The translations under genes were made by a program, and so were the position numbers. Positions 11,724 through 59,161 of a stretch of DNA of 64,000 bases are shown piece after piece. The notes below the pieces were generated by a model. That model worked only from the letters and a program-made list of their open reading frames with translations, made no database searches and was not told the origin of the DNA. Where the stretch lies: assembly GCA_964641255.1 (NCBI GenBank), contig CAZXMM010000001.1:143757-207756 (forward strand). Reading direction: 5' to 3'. This stretch comes from an uncultured Gammaproteobacteria bacterium. Its GTDB lineage: Bacteria; Patescibacteriota; Microgenomatia; JAMCZE01. Position 1 is the first letter of the stretch. Each line of letters starts with the position of its first letter.

Positions 11724-11744
11724 ATTTTGTGATAGAATTTATCT

Positions 11745-12419
11745 GTGAACCCCTACGTAGTCTTCGCTTTATTGTTTCTGGGTTTAAGTAATTGGATCCA
11801 ACTTCGTTATCTTCTCGGAAATTTATTTGTACACCACAAACTTAGCAATACGGATGGAAAAGGGTTACTTGCCTCATTGAACAGAAAAACTGGATTGAAT
11901 TTATCAATTAAATTAATAGATGGACGAGATAAAGCAATCGGATTCATGGTTAGTAGTCCTCCATTTAAACCTGTGATGATATTTTCGGAAAAACTATATG
12001 AATTACTGAATAAGGATGAGTTTGAGTGGGTGGCCTTACACGAGTCTGGCCACTATTTAATGTGGCATAACTTGAAAATGGCCCTAACACAATTGGCTGT
12101 CGGCACGCTTGGAATAGCGCTTCTAAGTTTATTGCCGAGTTCCTTATTAACTCCAGCATTACTATCGGTGATTCTTAGTATTTTGTATATCCAATTAGCA
12201 AAGATTTACGAATATCAGGCAGACAATTATTCTGTTACCAACATGGACAATCCAAAAGGAATGATATCTGGAAACATTAAAATGAAAAAAGCAAATATGA
12301 CTCTAGGTGGTAATAAAATTTTACAGTTGGTATGGGTCATCGCTGTTCCCTACGAGAAACGGATAGCGATGGCAGAGAAGGAGATTGATCGGAGAGAGGG
12401 TAAAGGACAAAAATCTTAA
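11745..12419 (+). CDS. putative membrane zinc metallopeptidase (HExxH)
   Basis: ALHESGHY HExxH motif next to TM helices (M48/M56-like arrangement). Confidence 0.45.
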   Translation: MNPYVVFALLFLGLSNWIQLRYLLGNLFVHHKLSNTDGKGLLASLNRKTGLNLSIKLIDGRDKAIGFMVSSPPFKPVMIFSEKLYELLNKDEFEWVALHESGHYLMWHNLKMALTQLAVGTLGIALLSLLPSSLLTPALLSVILSILYIQLAKIYEYQADNYSVTNMDNPKGMISGNIKMKKANMTLGGNKILQLVWVIAVPYEKRIAMAEKEIDRREGKGQKS

Positions 12420-12598
12420 ATCTGTGCGCAAAAGTTCCAAACTCCATCTTTTAGTCTACCGAAGCTGAAGGCGAAGGGGACCGCCAGGGCGGTCTCTATC
12501 CTATAGTTTGGTTACCTTCTTGTTTTGCGACAAAATACAAGCATGGGTAAGGAAGATGACGAAAATCTGCCGTACGAATCCCTACTTTATTTGCCCTC

Positions 12599-12646
12599 TT
12601 GACATATTAGAACATGTGTTCTATTATAACTAGAACATCTGTTCTA
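12599..12646 (+). promoter_or_regulatory. sigma70-type promoter (TTGACA, 17-nt spacer, TATTAT) overlapped by two palindromic TetR-type operators TAGAACAnnTGTTCTA
   Basis: -35 at 12599..12604, -10 at 12622..12627; operator copies at 12608..12623 and 12631..12646. Confidence 0.6.
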
Positions 12647-12649
12647 TAT

Positions 12650-13225
12650 ATGAGAGTTAACACCAAACAAATTATTCTTCAAAAGGCAACCCGAGTATTT
12701 GCTAAAAATGTGTATCAACATTTCAGCATAAGAAATGTTGCTAAAGAAATTCCACTGGCTCACTCTGTTTTATATCACTATTTTAAGGACGAAGAAGAAT
12801 TATTGAAGGAGATGTATGAATCTTTGAACAGTGCCCTTGGTGAAAAGAGAGCAAAATTGCCAAAAACTAAAACTGCGTCTGAAATGCTCAAACAACGTAT
12901 TAAATTTCAGATTGAGAATGAAGAAGAAATAGTTGCTGTTTTAAAGTATTACCTTTCTCATAGAAAGAATTTTAAAAGATTTAAAAATGGCTTTGTTCCT
13001 GACAAAAGCTCACTACATATAGAAGAGGTTTTACGATTTGGAATGGAAACGAAAGAATTTTTTGTCGAAAATCTGGATGATGATGCAAAAGTAATAACAC
13101 ATGCAATTAATGGCTTTCTACTTGAATACTATCCTCATATCCCAACGGGGAAAGAAAAAAACGAACTCGTTGATAGAATCTTTAACTTTTTAATAAGAGC
13201 CTTGAAGGGAGGTGAAAACAAATGA
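12650..13225 (+). CDS. TetR/AcrR family transcriptional regulator
   Basis: N-terminal HTH (RNVAKEIPLAHSVLYHYF) typical of TetR; start chosen at the ATG after the operators (MRVNTKQ). Confidence 0.8.
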   Translation: MRVNTKQIILQKATRVFAKNVYQHFSIRNVAKEIPLAHSVLYHYFKDEEELLKEMYESLNSALGEKRAKLPKTKTASEMLKQRIKFQIENEEEIVAVLKYYLSHRKNFKRFKNGFVPDKSSLHIEEVLRFGMETKEFFVENLDDDAKVITHAINGFLLEYYPHIPTGKEKNELVDRIFNFLIRALKGGENK

Positions 13226-13419
13226 AATTGATAAATATTTTAACTTTAGTACTTGTTGTTGTAGGGGGTCTTAACTGGGGTCTTGTTGGATTATTCAAAT
13301 TTAATCTAGTAACTACTTTATTCGGTGAAGCATCAATACTTTCAAGTATAGTTTTCGTTCTTGTTGGTCTTTCTGCTGCTTACGTTGCAGCTATTATGTT
13401 GCCAAAAGAGATGAAGTAA
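13222..13419 (+). CDS. DUF378 family membrane protein
   Basis: VVGGLNWGLVGLF signature; ATGA overlap with the tetR stop implies an operon. Confidence 0.7.
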   Translation: MKLINILTLVLVVVGGLNWGLVGLFKFNLVTTLFGEASILSSIVFVLVGLSAAYVAAIMLPKEMK

Positions 13420-13845
13420 TTACAACTTAGGTGGCACAGTCCTTGTGCCACCAGTAGTGATAGGTACCAATAGTATTTCTTTTGAGGGTGTAGAGTTGGG
13501 GAAGCTAGGCTGCAGACTAGCTTCCCTATATAAAGATTTGTTACAAACTAGATAAAAAAGGTTTCAAAAGCACTATCAATTTTGCTATTAGCATTAATTA
13601 TCTTTATTCCCCATACCGATTATGCACACCAGCCCGTCTTACAGAAACAAACATACTCTAGTGACTGATTCGAAAATTTCTAAGACATATTACGACAAGC
13701 TCAGTAGTAAGCGGAATACGTACTTCTCTTGGGGATCCTTTACTTATTTTTTGGGGCTTTGCTCTTTTCGGAGCATTAGTTAGCATTTTATACTGTGTTT
13801 GGCAAAAAATATTCGTCCTATAAATAATTAAGGTATAATTTAAAC

Positions 13846-14244
13846 ATGAATACTGCCTATAATTGGTATCAACAATTAATAAAGCCTTCATGGGCGCCCC
13901 CGTCTTTTCTTTTTGGACCCGTATGGACAGTACTTTATATTCTCATAGCCGCTTCATTTGGTAAGGTATTTTTGATGGCTTTTCAAAAACAGATACCTTT
14001 AATAGTTATTTTGCCATTTGTGCTGAATCTTATATTCAATTTTGCTTTTACACCGATTCAATTTGGTCTAAAGAATAATTTTCTTGCCAGTATTGATATT
14101 TTGCTTGTGCTTATAACCATTATTTGGACAATTTTTGTAATTTATCCCCATGCTCGTTGGCTTGCCTACCTACAAATTCCATATCTATTTTGGGTAGTTT
14201 TTGCAACCTGCTTACAACTGACAATTACTTATTTAAACTGGTAA
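13846..14244 (+). CDS. TspO/MBR family protein (short, apparently lacking the first TM helix)
   Basis: WYQQLIKPSWAPPSFLFGPVWTVLY signature motif at the very N-terminus; stop codons upstream in frame. Confidence 0.7.
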   Translation: MNTAYNWYQQLIKPSWAPPSFLFGPVWTVLYILIAASFGKVFLMAFQKQIPLIVILPFVLNLIFNFAFTPIQFGLKNNFLASIDILLVLITIIWTIFVIYPHARWLAYLQIPYLFWVVFATCLQLTITYLNW

Positions 14245-14586
14245 ATCTACGAATACGGGGTAATGCCTAATTGTAATTTATTTTTCTCCATTCTGGCTGT
14301 GTTCTAAAACACTCATGTAAGCTAGTTTCTAAATTGCGCCAAAACCTTAGGGTATAATAAGTCGAGGCTCGGAGAGCTAATGAAAGTGGGCACGAGCCTT
14401 TCCTGTTCTCGGCAGAATATTGGGACTTTTGTAGAATCTAGATATGAAGGTAAAAGACAAGGCAGGAAATATCTATAACAAGTCGGCAAAATTGTGGCAT
14501 CAGACCAGAGCGGCAACGCTGGAGCGAACTAATGATCCCAAACTACCGAAACAGAATCGCCCCCATTTGTTTATAGAAAAGCCAGC

Positions 14587-14943
14587 GTGTATTCCAAAGT
14601 ACCAGACTTAAGTGGGAAGAGGGTTTTGTGTTTGGGGTGTGGTTCGGGGGGAGAAACTGAATTTTTACTTACCAAGAAACCAGCCGAGCTATTTGGAGCC
14701 GATATTTCGGAAAAATTAATTAAGTTTGCTAAAAAAGCGTACCGGAGGACATGTTTTTCAGTCATCGATGTGGAAAGCTTGATCTTCCCAAGTAATCGAT
14801 TTGATTTTGTCTATTCCAGCTTGCGGGTTGACTGTTTTGAGAGTTGGGAGAAGATGCTTTCGGAAGTAAGAAGGGTCTTAATGCCAAATGGAATATTCCT
14901 TTTTTCAGACAGTCACCCTGTTAAAATGACGCAGAAAGTATGA
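14587..14943 (+). CDS. class I SAM-dependent methyltransferase (short, possibly truncated)
   Basis: VLCLGCGSGGE motif I; GTG start; only 118 aa. Confidence 0.5.
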   Translation: MYSKVPDLSGKRVLCLGCGSGGETEFLLTKKPAELFGADISEKLIKFAKKAYRRTCFSVIDVESLIFPSNRFDFVYSSLRVDCFESWEKMLSEVRRVLMPNGIFLFSDSHPVKMTQKV

Positions 14944-15055
14944 CATCGATTATTGGGAAGTCAATAAAAAAATCCCAAATTTTATAATTTTCGAGCGTCA
15001 GAAAATTTATGAGTAAGTACCTAAAACAATTTCTATTACTCAATACAATCAACTT

Positions 15056-15406
15056 ATGACTTTAAGTACTTCTTGGTTTGAGATTTCTGTGACTGACTTA
15101 ACAAGAGCCATGAATTTTTATAGTCATGTTTTTGGAGTTGAGTTTCGAGTCGAAAGTATTCACAGAAATGAAATGGCCATATTCCCTGATAGGGTTGGTG
15201 CTCTTGCGAAAGGAGCTAGTTATAAACCGTCAAAATATGGAACCAGGATTTATCTTAATGTTGAAAACATTGACAAGGTTTTAAAAAGGGCTATAGAAAA
15301 GGATGGCAAAGTATTATTTCCCAAAACGGCTGTTGGGGTGTATGGATTTGTGGCAGAAATCGAGGATTCGGAGGGCAATTGCATCGCTTTAAGTTCTACG
15401 TGTTAG
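15056..15406 (+). CDS. VOC (glyoxalase/bleomycin-resistance fold) family protein
   Basis: FEISVTDLTRAMNFYSHVFG N-terminal VOC pattern. Confidence 0.55.
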   Translation: MTLSTSWFEISVTDLTRAMNFYSHVFGVEFRVESIHRNEMAIFPDRVGALAKGASYKPSKYGTRIYLNVENIDKVLKRAIEKDGKVLFPKTAVGVYGFVAEIEDSEGNCIALSSTC

Positions 15407-15416
15407 AATAAATTAA

Positions 15417-15917
15417 ATGAGTAAACTAATTAGCTGCATCTGGTTTGCTAATAATGACGGAGAAGAGGCAGCTAAATACTACCTCGATACTTTCAACTCA
15501 GCCCCCGGTGACCATAGTGCAGAAATGGGAGACATCACAAAAACCCCTAAAGCAGTAGAAGAGGTGGGGGGAAGACCAAGGGGATCTGTTTTAACTGCCG
15601 AATATGAACTTGATGGAATAAGCTTCATGGCTCTTAACGGGGGTCCCGTTGATCAGTTCAAGCTTAATGGTGCCACTTCATATATTGTTGAGTGTGAGAC
15701 ACAAGAAGAAATTGATTTCTTCTGGGAAAAACTCTCAAGTGTTCCCGAAGCGGAGCAGTGTGGCTGGTGCACGGATAAATTTGGGGTAACGTGGCAAATA
15801 GTACCCAGAATCCTAGATGAGTTAATGCGTAATCCCGAAAAGGCCGAAGCCCTAACAGCTGCTTTTATGCCTATGAAAAAAATTGATCTTGAAACAATTC
15901 GAAAAGCTGGCGAATAA
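15417..15917 (+). CDS. VOC family protein of the 3-demethylubiquinone-9 3-methyltransferase-domain (PhnB-like) type
   Basis: CGWCTDKFGVTWQI C-terminal signature. Confidence 0.6.
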   Translation: MSKLISCIWFANNDGEEAAKYYLDTFNSAPGDHSAEMGDITKTPKAVEEVGGRPRGSVLTAEYELDGISFMALNGGPVDQFKLNGATSYIVECETQEEIDFFWEKLSSVPEAEQCGWCTDKFGVTWQIVPRILDELMRNPEKAEALTAAFMPMKKIDLETIRKAGE

Positions 15918-16031
15918 ATTTGACAAGATTTTACAAAAATAATTTAAGACAGTTTTAAAGTAACCCATATTGTTTTCGGCACTTCGGCAAAGAAATCATC
16001 ACCGACTTTGGGATTTTGATTAAATCAATTT

Positions 16032-44065: not shown

Positions 44066-44076
44066 CGCTAAGTTAG

Positions 44077-44161
44077 CGGAGGGGGCGAGATTCGAACTCG
44101 CGGTATCTTGCGACACGGCGGTTTAGTAAACCGCTGCACTAGGCCACTATGCGACCCCTCC
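44077..44161 (-). tRNA. type-II (long variable arm) tRNA-Ser-like gene with anticodon loop UUACUAA (apparent anticodon ACU)
   Basis: hand-folded 85-nt cloverleaf: acceptor GGAGGGG/CCCCTCC, D-stem GCA/TGC, anticodon stem GCGGT/ACCGC, variable hairpin GTGTC-GCAA-GATAC, T-arm GCGAG-TTCGAAT-CTCGC. Confidence 0.6.
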
Positions 44162-45924: not shown

Positions 45925-46114
45925 GCGGTATTCATTGTACAAAATTCGAACCTTTTTTGAAACCAATCCTGACGAAGAAATCTGAACTGCACCCCGCCAC
46001 AATATTTCTGGGGCAAAGGAGGCGGGGTGATGGACTCGCCCGCGCGGAGGAGGGGTCTGGGGAGGAATCCGCGCGGGCTTCGGCTTTTTGTTTTGGCGAA
46101 ATTCTGGCGGGCTA
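45925..46114. repeat. IR-A left copy (190 bp, GC-rich, internal hairpin GCCCGCGCGG/CCGCGCGGGC)
   Basis: base-for-base reverse complement of 48866..49055, verified over the full length by hand. Confidence 0.85.
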
Positions 46115-47941
46115 TTAAAACTTGCCTTCTATATTCTCAAACAATTTGGTTAAATTATCTTTCGTCGTTGTGTCCAAATTGATTGAGGTTCCATTTTGGC
46201 AAGTTTCTAAAAATTTCTTTGCGAGCAAAACCTTATCCAGTTTACTCTTTTTTACATACTCCGAATTAGATTCCGTATAAGTTTTGCTCGTATCATTCAA
46301 CACAAATTCTTGAAAATTAGCCGGCGAGAAAATATCCTCCACACTCCCTGCGGTACTTAGCACAGCAAGAACTAAATCTTTTGTAACTAACCAATTGTCT
46401 TTTAGATTTTTCTCGCCATCCTTTTTCCCTTTGTCGTTGTCGTAGAGATATACAACCTTTCCACCCCAACCATGCAATATAGTACCTACAACTGGCATAT
46501 TTCCAGCTCCACCACCGAAAATAAAGTTCACGCTGTCTTTGCTAAGGATTTTCTTAAACGCATTTAGATAGTAGAGATCGGAAGCTCCCTCAACTACAAT
46601 ATTATTTACTTTATCTAAAGCCGTAATTCCTACACTTAATTCCAATCCAATGGCAGTCATAATAGGAGTTAAGGTTTCTTTATCCGCCAAAGCGTGAACT
46701 TTATTTTCTATTTTCGTTCCTGCTTTTTTTGTACGATGAATCAATCTAATTCGATTTAGCTTGTCGGCTTCCAAAAGATATGGCGAATGCGTTGAAAATA
46801 CTAACTGGACTTCTTTCGCTGAATCTTCAAGTTTGCTCAAAATATCTTCTTGAGCTTTGGCGTGGAGAAATAAGCCTGGTTCGTCAATCAAAATAATGTT
46901 TGGGACATCCTCATTTGCTCTTGCTGACACTTTTATATAAAACGCGAGGTGCCATTGTCTACCTTTACTTCGCAAACTTGGCTCATACGGGTAGCCGTCT
47001 TCTTGAATCCAAAACTGGAGGTCTTGAGAATCCCAATCAACGCTCAAACTTGAAACATCTTGCGTCCAAAACTTTTTGTAATCGTCATTGAGGTTGATAT
47101 TTATATCTGTTTTATGTTTCTGCTTATCGCGAGCAGTAGAAGTTTTGATCGTGGCAACATTCAAATCGCTGATTACTGACAAATCCTTAATCCATTCATT
47201 GGTTTCAAGTTCCGCAAAAGGTATCTTGTTTGGAAAAATATCTTCAAACGAATTAAAGAACACGAAATTTGGAATCCATCGTTTTAGAGCTTCTAAAAAC
47301 TTTTCCTCTATTGCAGTTAAATTTTCAAGATTTTGAATTTCTGTTTCTATCTCGGCTAAAAGTTTTGGCAAATTCTCACGATCTTTTTCATCTATTTGTG
47401 GGATATTTGGTGTAGTAGCAGTTTTGAAAGCAGTAAGAAGGGTTTTCTCATTCGTTAAATCAGAAAATTCAAAATCAAAGAAAGTTCCTCCTAACTGTGG
47501 ATATTTCGTGTGCAATGCTTTTACTTTGCCCCACTTGTCCTTGATTGATTTTTGAATTTTCTCAATTTCCTTTGCTCCAAAAAGGTCATTCTTCAGAGTA
47601 TCTTCTCCAAAAGTGTAGGTATCAGGAAAAGTTTTTATGATTTCGAGTTCAATATTGGCGATTGCTTTTTGGGTGCTACCTATCTCGGTTAAAACTTCTT
47701 TAACGGTATCTCTTTCAACGGTAAAAGTTATAGAGATTTCAGGTATCGCTTCTGGTGATTTAATAGGTTTAGCACTCTCTCTTATTTTTCCGTCCGTATC
47801 AAAATCCTCTAATGCTTCAAGAATAGAAGTTTTCCCAGATTCGTTTTTCCCAGCAAGAATGGTAATTGTATCCGTTAAATAGCAATCGCCGCTGTCGGTT
47901 ATGGACTTAAAATTTTTAATTCTAAATTTCTTAAGTTTCAT
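46115..47941 (-). CDS. OLD-family nuclease: N-terminal ABC-type ATPase + C-terminal TOPRIM domain
   Basis: Walker A LAGKNESGKTSILEAL, Walker B ILIDEPGLFLH, FSTHSP; C-terminal TOPRIM-like NIVVEGASDLYYL ... YLYDNDKGKKDGE. Confidence 0.7.
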   Translation of the reverse strand: MKLKKFRIKNFKSITDSGDCYLTDTITILAGKNESGKTSILEALEDFDTDGKIRESAKPIKSPEAIPEISITFTVERDTVKEVLTEIGSTQKAIANIELEIIKTFPDTYTFGEDTLKNDLFGAKEIEKIQKSIKDKWGKVKALHTKYPQLGGTFFDFEFSDLTNEKTLLTAFKTATTPNIPQIDEKDRENLPKLLAEIETEIQNLENLTAIEEKFLEALKRWIPNFVFFNSFEDIFPNKIPFAELETNEWIKDLSVISDLNVATIKTSTARDKQKHKTDININLNDDYKKFWTQDVSSLSVDWDSQDLQFWIQEDGYPYEPSLRSKGRQWHLAFYIKVSARANEDVPNIILIDEPGLFLHAKAQEDILSKLEDSAKEVQLVFSTHSPYLLEADKLNRIRLIHRTKKAGTKIENKVHALADKETLTPIMTAIGLELSVGITALDKVNNIVVEGASDLYYLNAFKKILSKDSVNFIFGGGAGNMPVVGTILHGWGGKVVYLYDNDKGKKDGEKNLKDNWLVTKDLVLAVLSTAGSVEDIFSPANFQEFVLNDTSKTYTESNSEYVKKSKLDKVLLAKKFLETCQNGTSINLDTTTKDNLTKLFENIEGKF

Positions 47942-47948
47942 AATCTTT

Positions 47949-48560
47949 TTAAGTATTTCTTGCCTTTCTTTCTTGAATACTTTTTAGTAGGAAGGGTGCG
48001 GCTTCTTCCTGCGTTTTACCCGATTTGATGCTATTACAAATCAGACAACTTGTTTTTAAGTTTTCTTTTGTATGCTTTCCACCCTTGTATTGAGGAGTTA
48101 GATGGTCAAGCGTTGCGTTTTCTGTAGTTACTTTCTCTCCACAATAAAAACAAGTGTATTTATCACGCTCAAAGATTTCTTTTCGTTTTTCTGCGTTGGT
48201 AAAATAATCTTCTTCAATAGGGTCAGCAGTGATTGAAAGTTTTTCTTTTACCAATGGAATTTCTTCTGGCAGAAAAATACTATAGAGCGTTCCCTCGCGG
48301 TTAGTGTCGCCAATCTTAATACACGATTTTTCTTCTAGTCCAGATACAAGTTTTGTAATATGAGCGTAATTCGATTTTTCACCGCGAGAAGAACCAAGAT
48401 TGTCAGCAATAGTCCTTTTACCAATTCGTATTTCTGCTGAACCATTTTTTATATACGAATTACGCAAAAAGAAAATGTAAAGTCCCGCTTCGTATGGAGT
48501 TAAGGATGGTAAGAGTAGATCAGTATATTGCTCAATAATTTTTTGTAAATCTTCTTTCAT
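47949..48560 (-). CDS. HNH endonuclease domain protein with N-terminal wHTH-like region
   Basis: C-terminus CFYCGEKV...LDHLTPQYKGGKHTKENLKTSCLICNSIK HNH motif. Confidence 0.7.
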   Translation of the reverse strand: MKEDLQKIIEQYTDLLLPSLTPYEAGLYIFFLRNSYIKNGSAEIRIGKRTIADNLGSSRGEKSNYAHITKLVSGLEEKSCIKIGDTNREGTLYSIFLPEEIPLVKEKLSITADPIEEDYFTNAEKRKEIFERDKYTCFYCGEKVTTENATLDHLTPQYKGGKHTKENLKTSCLICNSIKSGKTQEEAAPFLLKSIQERKARNT

Positions 48561-48563
48561 AAT

Positions 48564-48761
48564 TTATTTCACTATTTCCTCCATCGGAACGCCTAGCGAC
48601 TTGGCGATTTTTTGAATTGTTTGAACGCTTGGCTTGGTAACGACACCACCCTCAATTTTTGTAAGGGTAGAGTATTTGATATTGGCTTTTTTCGCCAAGT
48701 CGTCTTGCGTTAATCCTTGTTTTGCTCGTATCCTCTTTATGTTTTCAGATATAGTTGCCAT
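48564..48761 (-). CDS. XRE-family helix-turn-helix transcriptional regulator
   Basis: 65 aa; IKRIRAKQGLTQDDLAKKANIKYSTLTKIE HTH_3 pattern. Confidence 0.75.
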   Translation of the reverse strand: MATISENIKRIRAKQGLTQDDLAKKANIKYSTLTKIEGGVVTKPSVQTIQKIAKSLGVPMEEIVK

Positions 48762-48865
48762 AGTATGCTACTTTTGATAGTATATAAATATGAGCCATTA
48801 CTTTCTTTGCTCACAAAACAAGGATAGCAAAAATCAGAGATTTTTTCAAGGTGTATTTTTTATTT

Positions 48866-49055
48866 TAGCCCGCCAGAATTTCGCCAAAACAAAAAGCCGA
48901 AGCCCGCGCGGATTCCTCCCCAGACCCCTCCTCCGCGCGGGCGAGTCCATCACCCCGCCTCCTTTGCCCCAGAAATATTGTGGCGGGGTGCAGTTCAGAT
49001 TTCTTCGTCAGGATTGGTTTCAAAAAAGGTTCGAATTTTGTACAATGAATACCGC
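48866..49055. repeat. IR-A right copy (inverted, 190/190 identical to 45925..46114)
   Basis: see IR-A left. Confidence 0.85.
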
Positions 49056-49057
49056 AA

Positions 49058-49171
49058 ATTTTCGAAAAGGGTTTCGGAACCAAAAATATGGTCGGCGCGA
49101 AGCGCCGACTGTTCTGCATTCCCCCCACAAAATCCTGATTCTGCAAGGATTCGCCACGCTCCGCGTGGCTC
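49058..49171. repeat. IR-B left copy (114 bp)
   Basis: exact reverse complement of 50601..50714; with one mismatch the match extends 6 nt further on each side. Confidence 0.85.
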
Positions 49172-49198
49172 CTCGTTTGCCAATACAATTTCAATTTT

Positions 49199-50815
49199 AT
49201 GAATAATCACACCAGAAAGTTTTTTATATACACTCGCAAATCAACCGATACAGAGGATCGGCAAGTGAGAAGCATTTCAGACCAACTGGCCGAACTAAAA
49301 CAATTGGCGATAAAAGAGGATATTGATGTCGTTGATATTTTCGTGGAAAAACAAACCGCTAAAGCTCCGGGTCGGCCAGTATTTAATGAAATGCTTCTCC
49401 GTATCGAGCAAGGTGAGGCAAATGGAATTTTAGCTTGGCACCCCGACAGGTTAGCGAGGAATAGTGTTGACGGTGGAAAAGTTATTTACTTGCTCGATAC
49501 GGGAAAGATTGCCGAGCTGAAATTTCCAACTTTCTGGTGTGATCCGACACCGCAAGGCAAATTCATGCTCTCAATCGCTTTTTCGCAATCCAAGTATTAT
49601 GTTGATAACCTGTCGGAAAATATCAAGCGTGGTCATCGCAACAAAGTGAAAGACGGAATATGGCCTCAAATGTCTCCGCTCGGATATGTAAATGTGAAAG
49701 GTGCTGGAATTATTCCCGATATTGAAATTGCCAAACTGATTAAAAAGACATTTGAGGCATATTCGTCTGGGTCTTTCACTTTGCGACAACTCCGGGACAA
49801 GTTTAATGGACTTGGATTGAAGCGAAAAAGCGGAAAGGAACTTGCGGTGTCGAACTATCAGCAAATCCTCAAAAATCCTATCTACACAGGACTAATGAGA
49901 TATAACGGAGAGATTTTTGAGGGGAAGCACGAACCGATTATCACAAAGAAACTTTTTGATTCCGTTCAAGAAGTGATGATGAAAAAGAGCAAACCACATT
50001 CCAAAGGCCTAAAACCATTTTTATACAGAGGATTTTTCCGTTGCGGAGAATGTGGATGTTTCATCACTACCGAAACGCAGAAAGGTCATAATTATTTGAG
50101 GTGTACCAAACGGAAAAATCCTTGTGAACAAAAATATGTTCGTGAGGAAATCATCACTTCTAAAATCAGAACGGAATTACAAAAAGTTTCTTTGCCACTC
50201 GATTGGGCAAATTGGATGATTGTCGAAAACGAGAAAGATCGGCAATCAGAAACCCAATCGAGTGAGATTTTTTCTCAAAAAACAAAAGACGAAATTTCTC
50301 TTTTGGATTCCAAAATTGAGAAGCTGATGAACGCATATCTTGAAAACGCACTTTCGCTAGACGAATATCGTGATTCTAAAAACAAGTTGGTAAGCTCAAA
50401 ACAGCTTCTCAAAGAGAAATTATCAGCTTTTGAGAAAAAATCTCATAATCGGTTCGAACTTGCTGATAGATTCATAAAATCCAGTATAAACAATATGGAA
50501 TTGGCAAACGAGGGAATTCCCGAAAAGATTTTTCGGGAATTCAAAAAAGTCGGTTCGAACTTTCAAATTAAGGACCGAACCGTACTTTTTGAGCCACGCG
50601 GAGCGTGGCGAATCCTTGCAGAATCAGGATTTTGTGGGGGGAATGCAGAACAGTCGGCGCTTCGCGCCGACCATATTTTTGGTTCCGAAACCCTTTTCGA
50701 AAATCTGCGGAGGAGGCGAGATTCGAACTCGCGCGAGCTTGCGCTCAATTGCTTTCCAAGCAATCGGAATGGGCCACTATCCGACTCCTCCAACTTTAGA
50801 ATTCTATCAAATTGA
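49199..50815 (+). CDS. large serine recombinase (resolvase catalytic domain + recombinase domain + zinc ribbon + coiled coil)
   Basis: N-terminus YTRKSTDTEDRQVRSISDQ (catalytic Ser context), zinc ribbon CGECGC...C...C. The annotated 3' end runs through IR-B and into tRNA-Ser without a stop, so the functional C-terminus probably lies before about 50600. Confidence 0.8.
   Translation: MNNHTRKFFIYTRKSTDTEDRQVRSISDQLAELKQLAIKEDIDVVDIFVEKQTAKAPGRPVFNEMLLRIEQGEANGILAWHPDRLARNSVDGGKVIYLLDTGKIAELKFPTFWCDPTPQGKFMLSIAFSQSKYYVDNLSENIKRGHRNKVKDGIWPQMSPLGYVNVKGAGIIPDIEIAKLIKKTFEAYSSGSFTLRQLRDKFNGLGLKRKSGKELAVSNYQQILKNPIYTGLMRYNGEIFEGKHEPIITKKLFDSVQEVMMKKSKPHSKGLKPFLYRGFFRCGECGCFITTETQKGHNYLRCTKRKNPCEQKYVREEIITSKIRTELQKVSLPLDWANWMIVENEKDRQSETQSSEIFSQKTKDEISLLDSKIEKLMNAYLENALSLDEYRDSKNKLVSSKQLLKEKLSAFEKKSHNRFELADRFIKSSINNMELANEGIPEKIFREFKKVGSNFQIKDRTVLFEPRGAWRILAESGFCGGNAEQSALRADHIFGSETLFENLRRRRDSNSRELALNCFPSNRNGPLSDSSNFRILSN
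50601..50714. repeat. IR-B right copy (inverted), inside the 3' end of the recombinase ORF and abutting the tRNA-Ser(GGA) 3' end
   Basis: see IR-B left. Confidence 0.85.
50718..50801 (-). tRNA. tRNA-Ser (anticodon GGA)
   Basis: 84-nt type-II cloverleaf; anticodon loop TTGGAAA; T-arm GCGAG-TTCGAAT-CTCGC. Confidence 0.85.
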
Positions 50816-51650: not shown

Positions 51651-51667
51651 ACTTAGTACCCACAGTG

Positions 51668-51739
51668 TGCTCCTAAGAGGAATCGAACCTCCATCACAGC
51701 CTTCGGAGGGCCGTACTCTATCCATTGAGCTATAGGAGC
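51668..51739 (-). tRNA. tRNA-Arg (anticodon CCG)
   Basis: 72-nt cloverleaf; anticodon loop CTCCGAA. Confidence 0.8.
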
Positions 51740-51745
51740 AAGCGG

Positions 51746-51827
51746 CGGAGGGTAGAGGAGTCGAACCTCTTAGTCCTTGCGGACATTAGTTTTCAAGACT
51801 AACGCATTACCGCCCTGCCCACCCTCC
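51746..51827 (-). tRNA. tRNA-Ser (anticodon TGA)
   Basis: 82-nt type-II cloverleaf; anticodon loop CTTGAAA. Confidence 0.85.
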
Positions 51828-51834
51828 ACCATGG

Positions 51835-51906
51835 CGCTCCCAGACAGAATCGAACTGTCATCACTAGGTCCGCAACCTAGTACTCTATCCATTAAGCTAT
51901 GGGAGC
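51835..51906 (-). tRNA. tRNA-Arg (anticodon reads GCG)
   Basis: 72-nt cloverleaf nearly identical to the Arg-CCG gene except for the anticodon arm; loop TTGCGGA. Confidence 0.7.
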
Positions 51907-52873: not shown

Positions 52874-52956
52874 GGAGAGCGGGCAGGACGGTAATGCGCT
52901 GGTTTCGAAAACCAGTGCCCTAACTGGGCTAACAGGTTCGACTCCTGTGCTCTCCG
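52874..52956 (+). tRNA. tRNA-Ser (anticodon CGA)
   Basis: 83-nt type-II cloverleaf; anticodon loop TTCGAAA; T-arm ACAGG-TTCGACT-CCTGT. Confidence 0.85.
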
Positions 52957-52990
52957 CCCCAATTGAGTGTTGAGTGGATTAAGACATATA

Positions 52991-57155: not shown

Positions 57156-57245
57156 TGGCGGAGGAGACAGGATTCGAACCTGCGCGAGCCTTGCGGCTCA
57201 GAGAGTTAGCAACCCTCCGCAATGGACCAACTATGCGACTCCTCC
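57156..57245 (-). tRNA. tRNA-Ser (anticodon GCT), 3' CCA encoded
   Basis: 90-nt type-II cloverleaf; anticodon loop TTGCTAA. Confidence 0.85.
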
Positions 57246-58743: not shown

Positions 58744-58748
58744 ATATG

Positions 58749-59161
58749 TGGAGATGGGGGGAATGATCCCCCGTGTGAAATCACGACCTCTAAACATCTA
58801 CAAGCTTAGATGATTCTGGAATTTCAAAGCAATCAATCGAATCATCAAGAAAATTACCTCTAGATTTATTGTCTTAGTTTATTAAAGAAAATCAGCCTTT
58901 AATAACAGCGTCTTGGCTGTGTTTATGCTCCAAAGATCCCACCAAGAGAAGACCTTGGGAACAGACTTACGCTACTTGAGCGTAGGCAAAAGCAAAATTG
59001 CTTTTGCGCGTTGCGGAAAGAGCTTTTTCAAGCTTTTCGTAAAACGCGGTCAGTGTGGATTGTGTTCCAGCACTTAAGTTTTCGATACCGTCTTTTACGA
59101 TGAAGGTATCCTAATCGGCTTGCAGTTTTTAAAGTGCGACTTCGTCGATTCGTACATCCCC
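58749..59161 (-). ncRNA. ssrA: tmRNA (ssrA) candidate
   Basis: 5' GGGGATGTACGAATCGACG pairs with 3' CATCTCC to form a tRNA-like acceptor stem; G5/C5 T-arm near the 3' end; internal ORF ending GCT CAA GTA GCG TAA; immediately downstream of smpB. Confidence 0.55.

Follow-up and report, generated by a model that had tools for sequence, protein, structure and literature searches.

The stretch of DNA analyzed here, referred to as the window and 64 kb in full length, carries at 46 to 49 kb three small-gap, co-oriented genes encoding an OLD-family ATPase/nuclease, an HNH endonuclease, and an XRE-family regulator. A first-pass annotation had described these genes as a three-gene combination, bounded by inverted repeats (IRs), associated with a recombinase, and possibly representing an undescribed defense or addiction module. 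The genes and the promoter-like site that precedes them are as follows.

46115 to 47941, minus strand: OLD-family ABC-ATPase/TOPRIM gene, 608 amino acids (aa) (open reading frame [ORF] list)
47949 to 48560, minus strand: HNH endonuclease gene, 203 aa (ORF list and Pfam)
48564 to 48761, minus strand: XRE-family helix-turn-helix regulator gene, 65 aa (ORF list and Pfam)
48821 to 48849, minus strand: promoter-like site within the cassette, TTGAAA-17-TATCCT with a TG extension

The OLD and HNH genes are separated by 7 nt and the HNH and XRE genes by 3 nt. The promoter-like site lies ~60 nt upstream of the XRE gene, in a region conserved with the XRE upstream region of another locus (L074), and the trio is one operon with the XRE gene first. 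The G+C content is 0.34 to 0.40 over 46 to 49 kb versus 0.44 to 0.47 in the flanks, and the trio is enclosed by a 190-nt IR (45925 to 46114 and 48866 to 49055) that is 100% complementary, a match far exceeding chance expectation. A large serine recombinase (LSR) gene adjoins it, and an ABC transporter completes the neighborhood. The spacing, orientation, and coordinates in the ORF list, the repeat, and the recombinase all agree with the physical description given in the first-pass annotation.

The proposal that the three genes form one system did not survive a test of co-occurrence. Neighboring ORFs were clustered across 54 loci carrying OLD homologues 57 to 96% identical to the protein of the window. 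The HNH of the window was found in none of these 54 loci, and no OLD gene lay beside the HNH in any of 10 sampled HNH loci (three homologues, in three distinct gene contexts). An HNH fragment at the start of L005 proved to be the C terminus of a GmrSD_N-HNH protein. The HNH gene also occurs alone, without XRE, in L061 to L066. In L057 to L060, the genes after an XRE-HNH pair (74% nucleotide identity) encode not OLD but a 69-aa protein and a 319-aa SDH-type (ClpP/SppA-like) serine protease (e.g., L057, 2852 to 4878). These loci have an LSR platform of the same kind, and the set of XRE-HNH, 69-aa protein, and protease may be another nuclease-plus-effector cargo. Because OLD and HNH do not co-occur in the loci sampled and because the XRE gene leads unrelated cargos (see below), the three genes are separable modules. 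The suggestion of an undescribed defense arrangement is thus not supported for the trio; it stands for the OLD gene as the terminal gene of restriction-modification (R-M) and Type IV cassettes.

Among the 46 distinct contigs that were informative (i.e., that had usable flanks), OLD shares its cassette with DNA methyltransferases and/or restriction enzymes in 39 (~85%). The main gene order is XRE, DNA methyltransferase, restriction endonuclease, and, last, OLD. The partners, identified by Pfam searches on cluster representatives, include N6_N4 methyltransferases with MutH-like, MvaI/BcnI-type, HNH, or unassigned nucleases; C5 methyltransferases with NgoPII or HinP1I; Dam/D12 methyltransferases, often with an unassigned 391-aa protein; an EcoRI-like methyltransferase with GmrSD_N-HNH; DpnI; and Mrr. 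OLD-linked restriction cassettes represent at least nine enzyme types. The coupling is tight: in 28 of 43 loci with a scorable upstream ORF, the window included, the upstream gene on the same strand either overlaps the OLD start by up to 4 nt or ends no more than 10 nt ahead of it, and at least 12 different genes occupy this position. Comparison of the near-identical elements of L001 and L017 revealed that XRE (96% nucleotide identity) and OLD (90%) were kept, while the R-M genes between them differed. In L027, L040, and L050, a different HNH (C31) lies directly upstream of OLD; since it is accompanied by its own N6_N4 methyltransferase, the two make up a normal R-M pair. The HNH gene of the window fills the slot held by R-M genes in related cassettes, without a methylase.

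Class 1 OLD genes have been described as single genes away from other defense genes (PMC10568477, PMC6755086), and the R-M/Type IV linkage contradicts that description. The remaining OLD types come with a UvrD-like helicase (Class 2) or a retron (Class 3) or, in PARIS, are split (PMC6755086, PMC10568477, PMC11464382). A Gabija-type pair beside the PluTI R-M system was noted earlier (PMC2875022). In the literature consulted, coverage of which was incomplete, we found no description of a single OLD gene appended to R-M operons. The OLD gene of the window is Class-1-like, and its setting, at the end of restriction cassettes, is new and apparently not described before. A further small gene was observed beside OLD in L016, L017, L033, L035, and L049, where a conserved 108-aa protein (cluster C11, for which no annotation was obtained) is encoded ~50 nt after OLD, between OLD and the repeat arm (e.g., L033, 3451 to 3777). 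This protein may have an accessory role.

OLD nucleases are classified by their neighboring genes, and the protein encoded here lacks the partners that define Classes 2 to 4, as the first-pass annotation had stated. No Gabija-type helicase (GajB) was found among the annotated neighbors in the 54 OLD loci, several neighbor clusters having no Pfam match; no reverse transcriptase was found in the neighboring ORFs, and Rfam showed only tRNAs and a transfer-messenger RNA (tmRNA) in the window; and a single 608-aa ORF holds both the ATPase and the TOPRIM parts, unlike the split arrangement of PARIS (Class 4). The isolation from defense neighbors that marks Class 1 is likewise absent, given the R-M/Type IV linkage counted above.

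Domain searches assigned the two halves of the protein with different strengths, the ATPase half unambiguously. Pfam searches returned AAA_15 (E = 2.5e-21, residues 1 to 389), AAA_21 (5.5e-13), and, at the N terminus, SMC_N. The ABC-ATPase motifs noted previously were all located, namely, Walker A (GKNESGKT, residues 31 to 38), Walker B (IILIDEP, 349 to 355), and STHSP (383 to 387), and they are invariant in 29 sequences. OLD-like_TOPRIM (PF20469) matched at an E value of 0.0047 (17.9 bits, under the 23.2-bit cutoff) and was matched in 28 of 29 family members at an E value of 0.05 or better (best, 1e-4). An alignment spanning 70 to 95% identity shows the TOPRIM residues E451, D455, D501, D503 (DxD), E535, and D536 to be invariant, and the OLD catalytic residues of the window protein are intact. 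The best defense system model was PADLOC "Old" (1.4e-27 over residues 340 to 511, reaching the DxD motif), followed by AriA, PtuA, AriAB, and GajA; the Old and GajA model alignments both extend through residues 509 to 511. The match to the Old model, the recurrence of PF20469, and the invariant acidic residues together argue against the possibility, raised with the original proposal, of an ordinary RecF/SbcC ATPase without TOPRIM. Sequence searches of the PDB returned PtuA, TsOLD (6P74; Thermus scotoductus, Class 1), GajA (over residues 300 to 476), and AriA. The top match was PtuA 8EE4 (2.3e-7 alone and 1e-9 with the family profile), and in the profile search the ATPase motifs alone were matched. 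NCBIfam PtuA also matched (6e-17), at 61.7 bits against a 500-bit cutoff. AlphaFold predicted a helical insert at residues ~123 to 222 (helices 123 to 146, 162 to 182, and 185 to 222; pLDDT of 80 to 95), for which there was no confident structural match. A structural route to the TOPRIM fold was abandoned: the modeled core was disordered, Foldseek gave only SMC, Rad50, and PtuA heads with a TM score of ~0.2, and these results were not used as evidence. Because the AlphaFold and Foldseek results were poor, the TOPRIM fold is assigned from hidden Markov models (HMMs) and motifs, not from structure. From its sequence, we accept the 608-aa protein as a probable OLD-family ABC-ATPase/TOPRIM nuclease.

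More than 1,300 homologues of the OLD protein were detectable. The best 120 are 70 to 95% identical and come nearly all from metagenome-assembled genomes of Patescibacteria (candidate phyla radiation [CPR]), mostly on short contigs. Full-length homologues with 32 to 40% identity are encoded on plasmids of Lactococcus and Bacillus as single genes, with no annotated R-M gene within 4 to 5 kb; one such plasmid homologue in cultured Firmicutes adjoins a small resolvase. The solitary plasmid genes argue that the OLD protein works autonomously. In L006, OLD directly follows XRE. IMG/VR contained no relatives of OLD or of the LSR, and GenBank phages gave weak partial matches only; on these grounds, a phage origin was rejected. 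The closest homologue from a cultured organism is encoded on the dairy plasmid pLLN8-2 of Lactococcus lactis (L081, 50625 to 52433; 40% identity, full length). Its gene, labeled "AAA family ATPase," is a solitary one and lies downstream of a gene for a small serine recombinase, at a distance of 80 nt. This homologue would be a tractable system for the OLD subfamily.

The HNH protein has its nuclease domain at residues 137 to 186 (Pfam HNH_5, 4e-11; HNH, 1.3e-10), with invariant C137, C140, C172, C175, D152-H153, N167, and N176. It is 66 to 92% identical to relatives across CPR, Chloroflexi, Omnitrophica, and DPANN and matched PADLOC PtuB models at 1e-6 to 1e-5. Its N-terminal ~115 aa had no Pfam match even at an E value of 10, and no PDB sequence match was obtained outside the HNH domain; the winged helix-turn-helix label given earlier to this half is unconfirmed. 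We found no methyltransferase between XRE and OLD (ORFs and Pfam). A scan of all window ORFs of 150 aa or more for (D/N/S)PP(Y/F/W) returned only an SPPF, in an unrelated ORF (11736 to 12416). Since it is without a methyltransferase, the HNH is probably modification dependent (Type IV-like) or otherwise self-sparing, and the former possibility is supported by the methylase-less neighbors of OLD elsewhere, which are all Type IV/IIM (DpnI, Mrr, and GmrSD-HNH). By this analogy, the protein is most likely a Type IV-like or otherwise self-sparing restriction nuclease.

The XRE protein matched HTH_3 in Pfam (5e-17) as well as HipB, MqsA, and PezA-type antitoxin models. At 90% identity, it clusters with a protein present on 436 contigs. 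Proteins at least 90% identical to it lead many unrelated cargos; among these are a 2-hydroxyacid dehydrogenase operon, a DUF4145 protein, and proteins without known function. In 4 of 10 loci (L072, L073, L079, and L080), the XRE gene lies ~430 nt from, and divergent to, an annotated LSR gene of the same family; in L071 and L077, B-type repeats (described below) flank an unannotated stretch in the LSR position beside XRE. The XRE gene is the conserved first cargo gene of the recombinase platform and no specific partner of either nuclease. That it also leads non-R-M cargos indicates a platform regulator rather than a dedicated C protein.

The cassette is the cargo of a larger element, whose parts are listed below.

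45925 to 50710, no strand: LSR-type element of ~4.8 kb at the 3' end of tRNA-Ser(GGA)
45925 to 46114, no strand: arm A, left arm of the 190-nt IR, attR-like element end
46038 to 46078, no strand: E hairpin of arm A
48866 to 49171, plus strand: unit U, composed of arm A' (48866 to 49055) and arm B' (49052 to 49171), 306 nt, intact attP-like junction
48902 to 48942, no strand: E hairpin of arm A' (unit U)
49091 to 49109, minus strand: terminator-like hairpin in unit U
49199 to 50815, plus strand: LSR ORF, 538 aa, with Resolvase, Recombinase, and Zn_ribbon_recom domains (Pfam)
50591 to 50710, no strand: arm B, 120-nt IR of B', attL-like element end
50653 to 50680, no strand: terminator-like hairpin with a T run, in arm B and inside the LSR ORF
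50707 to 50791, minus strand: tRNA-Ser(GGA), integration target, whose 3' end abuts arm B

The second IR, B'/B, flanks the LSR gene and is 99% complementary over its 120 nt, with one mismatch. The outer 4 nt of arm A, GCGG (45925 to 45928), are the shared core, and A' and B' overlap on the core CCGC (49052 to 49055). The core is present at three junctions, between the chromosome and arm A (45925), between A' and B' (49052 to 49055), and between arm B and tRNA-Ser (50707 to 50710). Read in the direction of the tRNA, these junctions are tRNA.core.B (attL-like), A'.core.chromosome (attR-like), and A'.core.B (attP-like), so that an attP-like unit, U, lies inverted between cargo and LSR. The outer end of arm A carries a GGTTCGAA motif resembling a tRNA T arm. 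With its three Pfam domains and a short core shared with the target at all junctions, the locus has the features of an LSR integrative element. The best NCBIfam matches of the LSR were CcrB and XisF. Its ORF has no stop codon before arm B, within which the conserved part ends; the tail runs on across the core and into the tRNA-Ser gene in antisense. The LSR has more than 7,000 homologues, and those at least 80% identical range from 444 to 625 aa.

Related loci share this architecture. The split-repeat layout, with cargo within A/A', the LSR within B'/B, and an attP-like copy retained inverted between them, recurs in at least 13 loci. The arms stop exactly at a common 4- to 5-nt core in the window, L001, L017, L057, L006, L070 to L072, and L077. 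The same core/tRNA junctions occur in L001, L017, L067, L071, L072, and L077 and, with the core CCAC, in L057 and L006. Arm B adjoins tRNA-Ser in L001, L017, and L067 and, where junctions were examined, a tRNA 3' end or its remnant in L070 to L073, L077, and L079. L068 and L069 have the same layout with decayed arms (77 to 95%), and L057 and L006, whose LSRs share just 44% identity, have it at tRNA-Lys and tRNA-Ala. We found no counterpart to this LSR repeat architecture in the literature, coverage of which was incomplete. Two other accounts of the arms were discarded. A palindromic central dinucleotide does not explain the inverted attP, since L057 and L006 share the architecture with the nonpalindromic core CCAC, and the arms are not transposon terminal IRs with target duplications, the flanking 4-mers being inverted rather than direct.

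The most economical reading of the element would be a circle resembling the yeast 2-micron plasmid. The excised circle would carry two full IRs of ~306 bp between a 1.4-kb LSR arc and a 2.75-kb cargo arc, and integration through one U copy would split that copy into A and B. An exact-protein lookup of the flanking ABC ATPase found no empty site or circle junction; it returned only L055, from the same organism, which ends 30 nt into arm A. In L001 and L006, the cargo has the opposite orientation with respect to the LSR compared with ~12 other loci. These are different assemblies whose repeats may exceed the insert size, and because short-read assemblies cannot phase long repeats, the difference is at most a possible sign of real inversion. 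The 907-nt terminal IR of L016 was rejected as proof of inversion, since an assembler can make it from one isomer. A promoter-like sequence, TTCAAA-16-TACAAT, was also observed at the outer ends of A (45961 to 45934, minus strand) and A' (49019 to 49046, plus strand), just before the core. The copy in arm A faces chromosomal ABC transporter genes, and the copy in A' faces the recombinase; both are consensus matches only and are weakly conserved in sister elements. Rfam searches of U at E values up to 10 returned chance matches only, and U was rejected as a known RNA.

Each A-type arm contains the conserved E hairpin. Its stem of 9 to 13 bp varies in sequence between loci, and its loop, ATTCCTCCCCAGACCCCTCC, is conserved. 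The invariant loop is C rich, with two CCTCC motifs, and its complement carries two GGAGG. The stems covary: 152 of the 153 stem cells in 17 distinct copies form Watson-Crick or G-T pairs, with 2 to 5 pair types at 8 of 9 stem positions, whereas 2,000 shuffles gave a mean of 90 and a maximum of 108 paired cells. Arms of cargos without OLD carry the hairpin as well. In L074, L076, and L078, longer palindromic versions lie between successive cassettes (L074, 2695 to 2760, 4330 to 4392, 7048 to 7110, and 8663 to 8725), in the manner of integron attC sites. The E hairpin may serve as an insulating terminator or a recombination site, or it may be an RNA.

Several further features of the window were noted. 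A tRNA-Ser gene with the unusual anticodon ACT (44076 to 44161; ARAGORN) directly follows the ABC transporter permease gene, 1.8 kb from the element. It and tRNA-Ser(GGA) match the same tRNA-like stretches of L059 with ~80% identity, which suggests that the two genes are related; an earlier integration may have left tRNA-Ser(ACT) behind as a diverged copy. On the other side lie a dense tRNA cluster (Arg-Ser-Arg), two further tRNA-Ser genes, and the tmRNA gene (51667 to 51906, 52874 to 52958, 57156 to 57245, and 58746 to 59161), so that the same recombinase has several potential tRNA-Ser targets within 7 kb. A second stretch of low G+C content (0.35 to 0.39 versus ~0.45) at 12000 to 16000 suggests another horizontally acquired island.

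Taken together, the observed gene content and domains, the nonconservation of the trio, the R-M/OLD linkage, and the boundaries and repeats of the element favor an XRE-controlled operon of self-sufficient HNH and OLD nucleases, carried as cargo by an LSR element at tRNA-Ser, and we give this reading a probability of roughly 0.55. For the nuclease substrates, the trigger, and any cooperation between the nucleases, we infer the following scheme. The XRE protein would repress or time the cargo promoter, and the HNH would cut incoming DNA. OLD would be a second-layer effector, with the ABC ATPase as sensor and the TOPRIM domain as nuclease. According to a 2026 preprint, phage P2 Old is a tRNase that is kept inactive in a tetramer and is activated by aberrant DNA and single-stranded DNA (ssDNA) hairpins (bioRxiv 10.64898/2026.07.10.737580); earlier work described an ATP-stimulated 5'-3' exonuclease activity (reviewed in PMC10568477). 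By analogy with P2 Old, the OLD protein of the window would be switched on by aberrant or broken DNA and would degrade DNA ends and/or tRNA, halting infection. As an exonuclease, it would destroy restriction fragments; as a tRNase, it would bring about abortive infection wherever restriction had failed. Either one would be compatible with a generic partner for restriction enzymes, whatever their specificity.

A number of points weigh against this reading. The neighborhood sample is biased toward close relatives (at least 57% identity) and short metagenomic contigs. The Pfam TOPRIM match lies under its curated cutoff, and the AlphaFold models of the full-length and C-terminal protein are poor (pLDDT of 61 and 62, with the TOPRIM core below 50). 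A cognate methyltransferase for the HNH may sit elsewhere in the 950-kb genome, as the motif scan covered the 64-kb window, and the Type IV-like label is only an analogy for a protein whose N-terminal domain has no match. Finally, the 7-nt spacing and the PtuA/PtuB-like HMM matches leave room for physical cooperation between HNH and OLD.

That last point is at the center of one alternative, in which the two proteins form an obligate, Septu-like complex (a TOPRIM-bearing PtuA-like protein and a PtuB-like HNH) with XRE as its dedicated regulator, i.e., a new three-gene system. The top PDB and NCBIfam matches to PtuA, the HNH matches to PADLOC PtuB, and the narrow gap between the genes would all be accounted for in this way, and C31 HNH genes do lie directly upstream of OLD in three loci. 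The C31 proteins, however, are paired with their own N6_N4 methyltransferase, the gene order is opposite to that of PtuA followed by PtuB, and the PtuA matches span generic ABC motifs only and fall far short of the 500-bit cutoff. Given in addition that neither nuclease was seen beside the other in the 54 OLD loci or the 10 HNH contexts, we regard a dedicated complex as unlikely. We are also doubtful, though a little less so, that the cassette is mainly an addiction or stabilization module. In such a module, HNH and/or OLD would act as a toxin held in check by XRE as antitoxin or repressor, cells losing the element would die, and protection against phages would not be a primary role. The antitoxin models matched by XRE, the presence of Fic among sister-element cargos (L070), the annotation of AAA_21 as an AbiEii/toxin-antitoxin-type ATPase, and the small size of an element without any other maintenance function are points in its favor. 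On the other hand, the HNH gene is found without any XRE in L061 to L066, where an unrestrained toxin would not persist; OLD homologues are solitary on plasmids; and the same XRE leads metabolic-looking cargos. Moreover, R-M systems are both addictive and defensive, so that the two roles are not exclusive.

The remaining alternatives concern the element rather than its cargo. OLD and/or HNH might serve mobility (nicking, end processing, inversion, or cassette exchange at the hairpin repeats) instead of defense. The OLD stop codon lies 0 to 4 nt from the repeat arm in the window and in most IR-flanked cassettes surveyed, the arms carry a conserved hairpin while P2 Old recognizes ssDNA hairpins, and OLD, HNH, and LSR are each 70 to 95% identical across distant CPR lineages. 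Yet the same platform and hairpin carry cargos without OLD and HNH (L068 to L073), so the architecture requires neither nuclease; for integration, the LSR by itself suffices as recombinase; and the coupling of OLD to R-M genes would be left unexplained. A role in mobility therefore seems quite improbable. It is harder still to credit that the repeat architecture is an assembly artifact, such as a misjoin of integrated and excised forms, that would make the cassette context unreliable. The two arm pairs of the window show 100% and 99% identity, many related contigs break off within arms, L016 has its suspicious terminal IR, and short reads cannot phase repeats longer than the insert. Nevertheless, arms are imperfect in independent loci (A, 79 to 96%; B, 77 to 92%), the B arms of the window differ at one position, and the window lies on a 950-kb contig, all of which argue against an artifact, as does the fact that 13 or more loci, differing in sample, assembler, and cargo type, share the layout.

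Beyond the reading preferred here, that of self-sufficient nucleases carried on an LSR element, we tentatively raise a broader and less probable possibility: the OLD subfamily may be a dedicated, interchangeable partner of restriction enzymes, constituting a fifth OLD context class, on an undescribed serine-recombinase cassette platform. If so, any restriction cut or failed restriction would lead to complete destruction of the invader or to abortive infection in CPR bacteria, which, to our knowledge, largely lack RecBCD-type end processing. The excised platform would be 2-micron-like, with two IRs of ~306 bp and flip-flop arcs, its cassettes would be delimited by covarying, attC-like hairpins, and it would spread XRE-led defense cargos across Patescibacteria and neighboring phyla. 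The grafting of one OLD subfamily onto nine or more kinds of restriction system, with stop and start codons that overlap, suggests a general restriction-plus-OLD partnership. The carrier element is a simple, recurrent vehicle for the horizontal spread of defense genes among ultrasmall CPR bacteria, and its LSR is a serine integrase with compact, sequence-defined attP/attB sites at tRNA genes.

Each part of the locus resembles a known system and departs from it. Serine-integrase elements likewise have an LSR beside an attP-like site and a tRNA target, but known LSR elements have short attL/attR sites only, without long IRs or a retained attP. Hin, Gin, and Cin resemble the LSR of the window in lying beside or inside IR-flanked segments, although Hin-family invertases are small and nonintegrating. 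The circle predicted here, with two long IRs separating a recombinase arc from a cargo arc, resembles the yeast 2-micron plasmid; that plasmid uses a tyrosine recombinase and replicates autonomously, and inversion and the circle are predictions only for the window. Septu (PtuA plus PtuB, including the PtuAB of retron I-A) also places an ABC-type ATPase beside an HNH, and both PtuA and PtuB HMMs matched. PtuA is without TOPRIM, however; the order is reversed here, the pair is not conserved (0/54), and the scores are far under the family cutoffs, and the reverse transcriptase and noncoding RNA of retron I-A are absent from the cassette. Gabija (GajA/GajB) and PARIS (AriA/AriB) have in common with the OLD of the window an OLD-type ATPase and TOPRIM chemistry. 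The window has no UvrD-like GajB, and its ATPase and TOPRIM parts are fused, in contrast to the split AriA/AriB. PARIS senses the anti-restriction protein Ocr, a conceptual link to restriction (PMC11464382); we found no evidence for sensing of an anti-restriction protein by the OLD of the window.

C-protein-controlled Type II R-M operons begin, as the window cassette does, with a small XRE/HTH gene followed by nuclease genes, and the sister cassettes are true C-M-R operons (XRE; an N6_N4 or C5 methyltransferase; then MutH-like, MvaI/BcnI, HinP1I, or NgoPII). The window cassette differs in having no methyltransferase, and its XRE also leads non-R-M cargos. We know of no described R-M operon with a terminal OLD gene. 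Class 1 OLD (phage P2 Old, TsOLD 6P74, and Escherichia coli YbjD) is likewise without a helicase, retron, or split-TOPRIM partner; PADLOC "Old" was the best model, TsOLD was among the top PDB matches, and the plasmid homologues are single genes, with sequence similarity to the solved OLDs confined to the ATPase motifs. Whether such single-gene OLDs defend bacteria alone is an open question in the field (PMC10568477). In contrast with the isolated genes described for Class 1 (PMC10568477, PMC6755086), the subfamily represented in the window mostly sits in R-M and Type IV operons and is carried on a serine-recombinase element.

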